Below are positions 47,433 to 52,231 of a DNA stretch of 64,000 bases, in pieces. The DNA lies in the sequence record EF437941, one strand, 5' to 3'. How positions within the stretch are numbered: the first letter of the stretch is position 1; each line of letters opens with the position of its first letter. The notes below the pieces were generated by a model that searched no databases, had not been told where the DNA came from, and saw only the letters and a list, made by a program, of their open reading frames with translations. The stretch is from Escherichia phage Phi1. A program made the position numbers and the translations under genes.

Positions 47433-48833
47433 ATGGCAAACAATACTATTAACCATGTAAAAGACGATGCTCAATACGTCAAGTTTAACCCTGTAAATGA
47501 TTGGCCTCAAAGCATTACCAACGTACAAGCGGCTTTAGCCGCTATTAATGGCTTTGCCGTAAATGGATTACCGGACGCTACGGAAGATACAGCCGGGATC
47601 GCTGCAATCGCAACTCAGGAAGAAGTAAACGACGGGACAGTAGACAATAAGATCGTGACTCCAAAAACACTGGCTGTTAAAATGTCACGTCCAGATGCTA
47701 CAAAAGAAGTAAAAGGCATTACCCGATTTGCCACGATGGAAGAATCGCTGCAAGAGAGCAACGAGAACATGGCAATCGGTCCAGACACACTAAACCATTA
47801 CTTCACCACTAAAAAGGCGTCAGAGAGCGTTCAGGGGACTATTAAGATATGTTCTCTTGAGGCGGCAAAGATTGGCAGTGATGACACAATGGCAGTAACA
47901 CCGAAAAAGATGCACACTGCCATTGCACAGATTGTACCGGGATTAATTCCAGATCAAAACACAGCAACCGAAAGCACACAGGGTTTAGTTCAGTTAGCAA
48001 CCAGTGCGCAAGTTTTACAAGGCCAGATTCGAGAAGGTTTTGCAATTAGTCCTTATGCATTTGCAAATGCTCGCGCCAATGAGAATCAGGCGGGTACTGT
48101 TAAGATCGCCAACCAGTCACAGATGAATGCTGGTTCAGATGATACTGTAGTTGTTTCTGCCAAGAAGTTTGCAAGCACTAAGGCAACAACGTCTCAATAC
48201 GGTATTGTTAAACTACGAGACACCGTAGGAAGTGAGGCTAACGCTGCACTATCAGCAAATGCTAAGGTTCTTCCTAGCACTGGCGGTACGGTAAGCGGAA
48301 ACGTCTATAAAGGTTCAAACTCAGACGGCAACCAGTTTGTTACTAAAAATGAATTAGCGAATCATGCAATGCCAATTGGTGGTATTATCCTTTCTGGATT
48401 CAATGCCGATCGAGGTGACTTTCTGATCTGTAATGGTCGTTCACTGAATAAAAATCAATATCCGCAATTATTTTCTGCGATTGGTTATACCTTTGGTGGT
48501 TCAGGTGACAATTTTAACATTCCTGATATGCGCGGTTTAGTTGCTCGTGGTTGCGATCATGGAAGAAACCTTGATCCAGGTCGTCGATTTGGTTCTTATC
48601 AAGAAGACGCAATGCAGAGAATCACTGGTAAATTCCCTGTAGCTGACCGCTGGCGCGGTTGGTATGGTGGCGCATTTACTGCACAGCGCGGTCAATGGAG
48701 CACGAACTATAAAAACGGTGGTGGTGATGATTGGGGTACTACTGTTAACTTTGACTCAGGAAGATCCGTAAGAACGGCTAACGAGACTCGCGTCAAGAGT
48801 CTGGCATTAAACTATATCATAAGGGTGCGCTAA
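47433..48833 (+). CDS. 12: short tail fibre protein gp12
   Basis: N-terminus and central repeats resemble T4 gp12 as recalled (YVKF...QAA.AAI...GV.G.PDA). Confidence 0.85.
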   Translation: MANNTINHVKDDAQYVKFNPVNDWPQSITNVQAALAAINGFAVNGLPDATEDTAGIAAIATQEEVNDGTVDNKIVTPKTLAVKMSRPDATKEVKGITRFATMEESLQESNENMAIGPDTLNHYFTTKKASESVQGTIKICSLEAAKIGSDDTMAVTPKKMHTAIAQIVPGLIPDQNTATESTQGLVQLATSAQVLQGQIREGFAISPYAFANARANENQAGTVKIANQSQMNAGSDDTVVVSAKKFASTKATTSQYGIVKLRDTVGSEANAALSANAKVLPSTGGTVSGNVYKGSNSDGNQFVTKNELANHAMPIGGIILSGFNADRGDFLICNGRSLNKNQYPQLFSAIGYTFGGSGDNFNIPDMRGLVARGCDHGRNLDPGRRFGSYQEDAMQRITGKFPVADRWRGWYGGAFTAQRGQWSTNYKNGGGDDWGTTVNFDSGRSVRTANETRVKSLALNYIIRVR

Positions 48834-50602
48834 TGATTGAACAATTAAACATCCACGAGATCCCACATGTTGACGGTGTACCAAGCGAAGGACAGCACCG
48901 TATTATTTGGATCAAGAATGGCGAATGTTTAAGCGCAGCAACGACACAGACTGGCAATGACGGGACGCTTAACCGCGCCCCGGTTGCAATTCAAGAAAAC
49001 GTTGCACGCGTAAACGAAAACGCAAAATCAACCGTCGCTAAAGTTAACGAGGTTGTAACGGCGGTTAACGATATTAAAACAACTTTAGGGGTAATTTCTG
49101 ACGGAAGTATCATTGATGTGGTTAACCAGACTGTCGCAAAAGTTGAATCCGTCGAAGAGAACTTAGGAGAAACAGCAAGAACTCTGCAAACAACGGTAGA
49201 CGCTGTATCAGAACTTAACATCAAGATTGGTGATCGCCCCGCTGCCGATCCGAGCACAAGAACAATCTATGATGACATTTCTTTCATCAAACAAGAAATG
49301 GGTTCTTATCCTAACTTTAATATCAATGGTTCCCCTGATGCTGGCAGTTCCGGTTCTGGCATCAAATACCGAGTTATTCAGAATACCGCAGCATTAAATG
49401 ACCACGGTCGCCGAATCGTTCAGCTTGAAAACGACTGGCAAGATTCTGACGTAGGCGAGTTAACAAGACAAGTTAACAAAATGCGCAGTGAGATCGGCGA
49501 CACGTCTCTTGCAACACAAGAAAATGTGTATGTTCGTCTCCGCACCAACGCAAGAAACATTGCTAACATATCAAACGAAGTTCTAGAAGTCAAGAAAGCA
49601 ATTTTGTTTGATTCAATCCCTGATATCGGGACTAAAGTCACTACTCTGGGAACTAATTATGAACTTCTAAACAATGATGTTAATGGTGTAGATTCTGGTA
49701 TTCGTCCTCGTCTTCTGGCTGTCGAGAATAAGATCGGAACGCCTCAATCGGCTGGAAGCATTGATTATCGATTAACCAACACAGAGCGAGAATTTTTAGA
49801 TCTTAAACAGGTTGTTGGTGTAAGCGGTGCTGACGGTTTGCGCGGTGAAGTTGTTCGACTTTCCAATGAGATTGGCACTGACAGCGATCGACATACTCTA
49901 GCCGGACGTCTTAAAGTTGTAGAAAACACTCAGGGTCGGTTAGAAGCAAGCGTACAGGACATGGAACAGATTGTAGGTGATCGCGAATCAGGTTTGACCG
50001 CTGGCGTTATTAAACTATCAAGTGATATCTATGGCGATGATGGTTCAGAAGATCCATTTACTCAGAAAGGCGTGATTAAAATCGTCAAAGAGCTACAAAC
50101 ATCTAACGGAAACAAAGTAGATGATGTACCTGATGACGGTTTCCATTATCTGCGTAAGCGCGGAGAATGGGTGCAAGTTGCATATGCTGCTGGAGCATTT
50201 AAAAATACCGCAGATATTACGGTTGAACTCGACGAACAGGATGTTTATAAACCGATTCCGCTTAACGACATGGCGGCAGAAGTTAATGCTCGTCAAATGG
50301 TGAAAAGTGAATCTGTTGTTACCGTTCAGGACAAAGGTTTATTCCGTTGTGTATTCCGTTGTGCTGTACAAGCTCAACATAATGCAACATTCATTGTTGC
50401 GATTTTCAAAAATGGACAGATGGTATATGAAGCGAAAAATGGTCATTACGGCACAGACGAATTGATCAGCTATTCTACCAGTGCTTTCCTAAATATTGAA
50501 AAGGGCGATCAAATTAACATCCGTATTAAGGGTGTATCTGTCGAAGCAGTAGCACAACCAGTACAAATTAAAGAGTTCCTCTTTGGGATTTCTCCGGTAT
50601 AA
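48833..50602 (+). CDS. wac: fibritin (whisker) with extended C-terminal domain
   Basis: N-terminus (VDGVPSEGQHRIIWIKNGE) matches T4 fibritin; foldon-like GFHYLRKRGEWVQV followed by ~135 extra residues. Confidence 0.85.
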   Translation: MIEQLNIHEIPHVDGVPSEGQHRIIWIKNGECLSAATTQTGNDGTLNRAPVAIQENVARVNENAKSTVAKVNEVVTAVNDIKTTLGVISDGSIIDVVNQTVAKVESVEENLGETARTLQTTVDAVSELNIKIGDRPAADPSTRTIYDDISFIKQEMGSYPNFNINGSPDAGSSGSGIKYRVIQNTAALNDHGRRIVQLENDWQDSDVGELTRQVNKMRSEIGDTSLATQENVYVRLRTNARNIANISNEVLEVKKAILFDSIPDIGTKVTTLGTNYELLNNDVNGVDSGIRPRLLAVENKIGTPQSAGSIDYRLTNTEREFLDLKQVVGVSGADGLRGEVVRLSNEIGTDSDRHTLAGRLKVVENTQGRLEASVQDMEQIVGDRESGLTAGVIKLSSDIYGDDGSEDPFTQKGVIKIVKELQTSNGNKVDDVPDDGFHYLRKRGEWVQVAYAAGAFKNTADITVELDEQDVYKPIPLNDMAAEVNARQMVKSESVVTVQDKGLFRCVFRCAVQAQHNATFIVAIFKNGQMVYEAKNGHYGTDELISYSTSAFLNIEKGDQINIRIKGVSVEAVAQPVQIKEFLFGISPV

Positions 50603-50608
50603 GAAATT

Positions 50609-50633
50609 AAAGGGGCGTTAAGCCCCTTTTTCG
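50609..50633 (+). terminator. intrinsic terminator after wac
   Basis: Hairpin AGGGGCGTTAAGCCCCT followed by TTTTTCG. Confidence 0.65.
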
Positions 50634-50647
50634 TTATAGGTGATATT

Positions 50648-51646: not shown

Positions 51647-52231
51647 ATGGCATATTATTATCTATATCAAATAACAAATAATTTAAATGGGATGGTCTAT
51701 GTTGGTATGAGAACGTCCAAAAAACCAATAGAAAAGGATTCTTATTGGGGGAGCGGAAAACGAATTAAAAGAGCAATAAAAAAGTATGGAATAGAGAACT
51801 TCACAAAAACTATTCTTTCCACACACAACACGTTAGAAGAACTAGCTTTAGCAGAAAAAAAGATAGTGACTAAGGAATTTGTAGAAAGAGAAGATACATA
51901 TAATATTGCTCTGGGTGGAGTGAATAGAGGTTCTTTGTGGGATGACATGGACGAAGAAACCAAAAATGAAGCAAGAAGAAAAATATCTGAAAAAGCATCC
52001 AGTCGAAAAAGAGAATCTCACTCAGAAGAGACTAAAAATAAAATGAGTCAATCGGCAAAAAATAGAAATAGAGATTGGGAAAATTTTAAAGGCGCAAGAA
52101 AAATTATGGCAGAAGGTGTTCTATACTTAACCACTCAAGAATGTTGTAGAAAGTATGGGATATCAGCCGCTTCTATGAGGAAACGAGTAAAGTCAACCGC
52201 AGAAAAATGGAAGGAGTTTTATTATGTTTGA
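51647..52231 (+). CDS. GIY-YIG homing endonuclease-like protein (freestanding, seg-like)
   Basis: N-terminal YYLYQITN...GMVYVGM (GIY-YIG), NUMOD3-like [13 protein letters not shown]-terminal HTH-like segment. Confidence 0.8.

Follow-up and report, generated by a model that had tools for sequence, protein, structure and literature searches.

The C-terminal end of fibritin, the neck whisker protein encoded by wac, takes several forms among T4-type phages. Letarov and Krisch (2013) listed eight known forms, one of which is the "RB49-type", and reported that only the fibritins of T4 and JS98 fold via the small foldon alone, whereas RB49 fibritin needs an expanded C-terminal domain to trimerise or fold. 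In the literature, the T4 foldon drives trimerisation by itself and the foldon-like motif of the RB49 type does not do so alone. Cryo-EM and genetics, as summarised in the literature, indicate that T4 fibritin touches the long-tail-fibre knee with its C-terminal end, and the published view is that the fibritin C-terminal module has shown no recent mobility.

Here we describe a wac gene in the window, by which we mean the whole stretch of 64,000 nucleotides analysed. Its product extends well past a foldon-like motif, and the gene and its surroundings are laid out as follows.

48833..50602, + strand: wac (fibritin / neck whisker) ORF, 589 aa, uninterrupted; position 50602 includes the stop codon.
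48833..50107, + strand: region of homology to T4 fibritin (aa 1 to about 425), made up of the neck-attachment N-terminus and a putative shaft of segmented coiled coil.
50105..50185, + strand: foldon-like beta-hairpin motif, aa 425-451, NGNKVDDVPDDGFHYLRKRGEWVQVAY.
50186..50269, + strand: linker, aa 452 to about 479, starting with a conserved AAG(A/R)F motif.
50270..50599, + strand: predicted C1q/TNF-like beta-sandwich head, aa about 480-589, which would form the distal tip of the whisker.
50609..50637, + strand: terminator-like GC-rich hairpin with a short T-rich tail, a pattern match from a consensus scan.

PHROGs places the whole product in "fibritin neck whisker" (PHROG 1056, phrog_1056), with E=4.9e-186 and a match to positions 1-574 of the 582 in the profile. 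Megablast with the gene returned 56 matches, every one a Krischvirus-type phage of E. coli or Shigella, with nucleotide identities of 99.4% to wac of GEC-3S and 99.0% to wac of RB49, and we therefore assign the window to an RB49-like T4-type phage of the genus Krischvirus. The gene sits between gp12 upstream (466 aa, with a phage tail Collar domain) and a 310-aa ORF downstream that corresponds to the RB49 neck gene g13.

Several other features lie in this neighborhood. At window 48830-48836 the sequence TAATG overlaps the wac ATG with the gp12 stop codon, an arrangement suggesting that translation of the short tail fibre gene and that of the whisker gene are coupled. A hairpin at 50609-50629, 6 nt past the wac stop and ahead of g13, has an 8-bp stem with 5 GC pairs and a 5-nt loop, and the TTT of its stem is followed by TTTTCG; terminator-like on both strands, it is a candidate terminator. 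Between g13 and g14, a 194-aa ORF (window 51647-52231, + strand) encodes a GIY-YIG nuclease domain of the SegE type (E=9.5e-7), and its tail weakly resembles the DNA-binding part of I-TevI. In RB49 the two genes adjoin directly with no gene between them, and annotations at the same site read "SegC homing endonuclease" in ECD7 and "homing endonuclease" in MIZ4. The ORF has the look of a mobile homing-endonuclease gene whose insertion varies among members of Krischvirus.

Through most of its length the protein resembles T4 fibritin. A phmmer search against the PDB aligned aa 7-431 with residues 5-435 of T4 fibritin (E=2.7e-49), and aa 7-84 matched the N-terminal T4 fibritin fragments 1ox3 and 2ibl (E about 5e-15), so that the product carries the N-terminal neck-attachment domain (~50 aa) of T4-type fibritins; by the same homology the shaft is presumably a coiled coil. 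Pfam Fibritin_C matched aa 368-451 (E=1.7e-30, 105.4 bits against a cut-off of 21, profile 2-92 of 93). The foldon itself is recognisable: the phmmer search paired aa 425-449 (NGNKVDDVPDDGFHYLRKRGEWVQV) with residues 456-480 of T4 fibritin, and this part of the product includes the motif GFHYLRKRGEWVQV (aa 436-449, nt 50138-50179) from which a reading of the sequence alone had proposed a foldon-like segment. Many foldon-tagged recombinant glycoproteins in the PDB also match aa about 396-451 because they share this motif. An alignment of Krischvirus, Muldoonvirus and a T4-like metagenomic contig (L008) shows no variation at the foldon residues P, Y, R, W and Q, and in the structural model described below aa 437-442 and 445-451 pair as a hairpin, with low to moderate confidence. 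The product thus contains the foldon motif of a T4-type fibritin, but internally rather than at its end. The T4 chain (487 aa) stops 7 residues past the foldon-aligned stretch; the protein encoded here runs 138 residues beyond the motif.

These 138 residues (aa 452-589, nt 50186-50599) bear out the structural part of the sequence-only reading, which had recognised a fibritin with a T4-like N-terminus and an extension of ~135 residues absent from T4. The interval it gave, 50150-50602, located the extension correctly, although it starts at aa 440 within the foldon motif and ends with the stop codon included. The extension is not peculiar to this phage. By tblastn, aa 452-589 were found in all 56 Krischvirus records at 100% coverage and 75-99% identity, in every case under an annotated wac; the search also recovered the fibritin of Serratia phage WSPA (27% identity). 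The extension is the normal wac C-terminus across Krischvirus, already published as the RB49-type fibritin.

RB49 gpwac (AAP04366.2) is the nearest described protein. It has the same length of 589 aa and the same position between g12 and g13, and only a few substitutions set it apart, with ~97% amino acid identity in the C-terminal domain (97.1% at 100% coverage in tblastn of aa 452-589 against RB49 wac), which places the product in the RB49 type. A query with the WSPA domain added Serratia phages 4S, 92A1, PS2, Muldoon and SP1 and Cronobacter phage VP8, all of them Muldoonvirus except 92A1, which is recorded at family level only (Straboviridae). When 1.84 billion representative proteins were scanned exhaustively with the head in HMMER, the only genuine matches were a close relative (P0004) and a distant fibritin (P0008), the latter 591 aa long and encoded between gp12 and gp13 on L008, a contig of 11 kb. 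Four further matches in the scan (P0005, P0006, P0007 and P0009) are internally repetitive and match over several short stretches, and we treated them as spurious. The fibritins of PS2, Muldoon, SP1, WSPA, 4S and VP8, together with those of 92A1 and L008, share the same order of parts with a C-terminal domain of 138-140 aa; the Muldoonvirus-type proteins and that of L008 are 591-595 aa long and lie between g12 and g13. Identity of these C-terminal domains to the one described here is only 20-32%. In every genuine family member the order is shaft, foldon-like motif, AAG(A/R)F, variable linker and domain.

Selection has acted to keep the extension. Compared with alleles of the JSE type, its dN/dS is 0.17-0.19 (Nei-Gojobori), showing that the domain is under purifying selection. 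Amino acid identity to the same alleles is 75-79% in the domain and 77-78% in the shaft: the extension diverges as the shaft does, unlike a host-range determinant.

Some database entries might at face value point to an artefactual extension, produced by read-through, by fusion with an ORF downstream, or by a mistake in assembly or annotation. Word-indexed protein searches with the head returned only two 110-aa fragments starting at M480 (P0001 and P0002), and a search with aa 368-589 returned only a 220-aa protein (P0003) that appears to end just past the foldon; P0001 and P0003 hint at split or truncated genes. Both turned out to be assembly artefacts. The 1.9-kb contig encoding P0003 (L007; ENA ERZ27268015 k141_11135) is a fold-back chimera at the foldon: its positions 924-1717 match window 49387-50179 in the forward direction and 1714-1829 match window 50229-50114 in reverse, giving rise to a false 220-aa "fibritin", and its reverse strand reads on into the linker (...WVQVAYAAGAFKNTADITVEL). 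We accordingly rejected P0003 as a relative lacking the extension. P0001 and P0002 were likewise rejected as an independently expressed head, as P0001 lies behind a scaffold gap within wac: L014 (ENA ERZ28635246 scaffold_107) has a gap of 100 N at 2829-2928 inside the gene, because of which the gene caller reports only the last 110 aa. As none of the 56 Krischvirus genomes has an interrupted 589-aa ORF, and as the extension is conserved at an omega of about 0.18, an artefactual origin has next to no probability and we exclude it.

We modelled aa 425-589 as a monomer with AlphaFold2 from an alignment of 5 sequences, which gave a model of moderate confidence (mean pLDDT 64.8). Between aa 482 and 588 nine beta strands are predicted, with a single short helix, in keeping with the beta-rich character expected from the sequence alone, and from about aa 480 to 589 the strands form a nine-strand beta sandwich whose 10-residue blocks average pLDDT 66-84. 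The linker beyond AAG(A/R)F is of low model confidence and variable between genera, with pLDDT below 50 at model residues 30-46 and 52-56 (aa 454-470 and 476-480); the two alanines of the AAG motif, A28 and A29, are invariant across genera.

Structural comparison of the model assigned the extension to a familiar fold. In a Foldseek search of the PDB, C1q domains ranked on top, with cerebellin-1 (E=4e-5), adiponectin, C1QL and the NC1 domains of collagen X and VIII. Against predicted viral structures (BFVD), the matches comprised tips of phage tail fibres, collagen-repeat proteins and viral proteins labelled "C1q domain-containing"; the top one was a 594-aa protein of the same length as the Muldoonvirus fibritins. 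Sequence profiles point the same way at lower strength: Pfam BclA_C (PF18573) matched the extension at E=4.8e-4 (20.4 bits, below the gathering cut-off of 38) and Pfam C1q (PF00386) at E=0.011 (16.3 bits, below the cut-off of 23.7), while among nine family members matches at E<=1 were seen in four for BclA_C and two for C1q. The extension misses the gathering threshold of both profiles and, by these thresholds, is a member of neither sequence family, and a PDB sequence search with the head gave no matches even at E<=10. At the level of fold, the model shows the compact jelly-roll beta sandwich of about 110-140 residues that characterises the C1q/TNF superfamily, and we are fairly confident in predicting a C1q/TNF-like (C1q/TNF/BclA) jelly-roll head. 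The sequence-only reading had named as its counter-case an extension that belongs to the usual fibritin C-terminus of close relatives and lacks a separate fold; close relatives do all carry the extension, yet its predicted fold is a separate one.

Two small stand-alone proteins in BFVD have a similar predicted fold. One, A0A192YAF6, is annotated "fibritin neck whiskers" and has 141 aa (Morganella phage MP1; TM-score normalised to the target 0.57); the other, A0A1J0MHA5, has 159 aa (Klebsiella phage KPV15; 0.51). They may be free-standing or split whisker-tip domains of other T4-like phages.

The head also moves between lineages. The wac gene of ECD7 (L004, 148-1917) is a mosaic: from the shaft past the foldon motif and on for ~28 residues into the extension it is 98-100% identical to the gene described here, and its beta-sandwich head is of the JSE allele (99-100% nucleotide identity to JSE, 81% identity to the head here). 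The breakpoint falls at about window 50203-50250, within the linker. Because a near-identical shaft is joined to a JSE-type head, the head has been exchanged as a unit between Krischvirus lineages, which adds a nuance to the published view of a C-terminal module without recent mobility.

What might such a head do at the end of a whisker? In trimeric stalks that end in a C1q-, NC1- or BclA-type head, this C-terminal head is the nucleus of trimerisation. We consider it probable that the predicted jelly roll of this RB49-type fibritin serves both as a trimerisation nucleus and as the distal tip that contacts the long-tail-fibre knee. Given its place on a trimeric fibre, the head would assemble as a trimer on the threefold axis and act as the nucleus for C-terminal registration and folding of the coiled coil, the role played by the 27-residue foldon in T4; the jelly roll, not the degenerate foldon hairpin, would then set the register of the three chains. 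A fold of the C1q/TNF type would explain why RB49 fibritin needs its expanded domain to trimerise. The trimer would form a knob at the free end of each whisker, and by analogy with T4 this knob would meet the knee of the long tail fibre (gp35/gp36), aiding attachment of the fibres and keeping them retracted.

RB49 gp36 (L009, 15157-16647) has 496 aa, of which only the first ~171 residues resemble T4-type gp36; about 70 records, most of them Krischvirus, match the whole of the remainder. The gp36 of Serratia phage PS2, whose fibritin carries the same head, also matches the RB49 gp36 C-terminal part (28% over 81%). These patterns are consistent with contact between head and knee, and they agree with the argument from covariance of wac and gp36 that Letarov et al. 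reportedly made in 2005. Short segments of RB49 gp36 at aa about 220-270 recur at 60-70% identity in many tail-fibre proteins of Klebsiella and Enterobacter phages, which suggests a shared fibre module. At the level of alleles, covariation between head and gp36 was not seen in ECD7, where a JSE-type head occurs beside a gp36 C-terminal part 100% identical to that of RB49. If the head binds gp36, the interface must be conserved between alleles; the partnership with gp35/gp36 is one that we infer by analogy with T4.

The ECD7 combination also fits a head that is purely a clamp for folding and trimerisation, a jelly roll that replaces an insufficient foldon-like hairpin and has no binding partner. 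The need of RB49 fibritin for its expanded domain, where the foldon alone suffices in T4, would follow from this reading too, as would the established role of C1q-type and NC1-type heads as classic trimerisation nuclei. Against it, 27 residues are enough for the task in T4, so that a 138-residue replacement kept in two genera suggests an extra function, and the end of T4 fibritin that contacts the fibre is the C-terminal one. A clamp alone is possible but uneconomical, and we regard it as improbable.

Slightly better placed, though still unlikely in our judgement, is a head that acts as an accessory adhesin or lectin, with the six whisker tips binding a host-surface glycan or an environmental ligand to approach the cell or sense conditions. 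The fold class includes glycan- and receptor-binding heads, and the structural neighbours of the model include the short-tail-fibre "CBD" of A-1(L), the A4 tail fibre, a TNF-like lectin of Photorhabdus, CBM-type modules and many phage fibre tips. Letarov and Krisch suggested adhesin-like functions for novel fibritin C-terminal domains, and proposed such a function for the RB43 and AehI variants. The sequence-only reading had itself proposed a binding module, which is reasonable by fold class, since these folds are often the binding heads of trimeric fibres, although no ligand was found; for its examples of carbohydrate binding and environmental sensing there is no specific pointer, and the literature assigns the domain a demonstrated role in trimerisation and folding. 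We found no ligand-binding motif in the head, and its purifying selection and shaft-like divergence differ from the behavior of the gp37/gp38 receptor-binding tips. In the literature, the host range of RB49-like phages and their recognition of the O-antigen have been mapped to gp38, and different fibritin types occur in phages that share hosts. Taken as a general statement that the whisker tips of RB49- and Muldoon-like phages are C1q/TNF-type lectin heads for a ligand on the host envelope or in the environment, such as mucus glycans or a conserved sugar of LPS or ECA, the idea is doubtful, on a par with the partnerless clamp. Were it true, the whiskers would constitute a second, low-affinity adhesin system or a ligand-gated switch for release of the long tail fibres, and would do more than hold the fibres.

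The extension found here belongs to a fibritin variant already in print since 2005 and described again in 2013, and the significance of finding it anew is modest. The retained foldon-like hairpin indicates a domain added after the foldon rather than in its place; this, the assignment of the C1q/TNF fold and the exchange of head alleles between lineages within a genus are the additions made here. None of the three was found in the searchable literature, where a search for a description of fibritin in terms of C1q or TNF also returned nothing relevant. The predicted head fold suggests constructs with which binding of the tail-fibre knee or of an external ligand by the whisker tips could be examined. 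As a C-terminal tag for trimerisation the head might offer an alternative to the foldon, which already fills that role.

Set beside T4 fibritin (PDB 1aa0, 1avy, 2bsg and 3j2o), the protein has a homologous N-terminal domain and shaft and conserves the foldon hairpin P-x-D-G-x-x-Y-x-R-K-x-G-E-W-V. Set beside the C1q/TNF heads of trimeric stalks (C1q, adiponectin, cerebellin, collagen VIII and X NC1, Bacillus BclA and APRIL/TWEAK), it shares 10-20% identity; its predicted core is compact at about 110 residues, and its stalk would be an alpha-helical coiled coil with a foldon rather than collagen. The tail fibre of cyanophage A4 (9k09), the short tail fibre of cyanophage A-1(L) (8ke9, "CBD") and the tail-fibre and C1q-domain proteins of BFVD resemble the predicted fold. 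Like the predicted wac head, the jelly rolls of phage fibre tips occupy the distal end of a trimeric phage fibre; they belong to tail fibres for host recognition, whereas the wac head belongs to the neck whiskers and shows no hypervariability.
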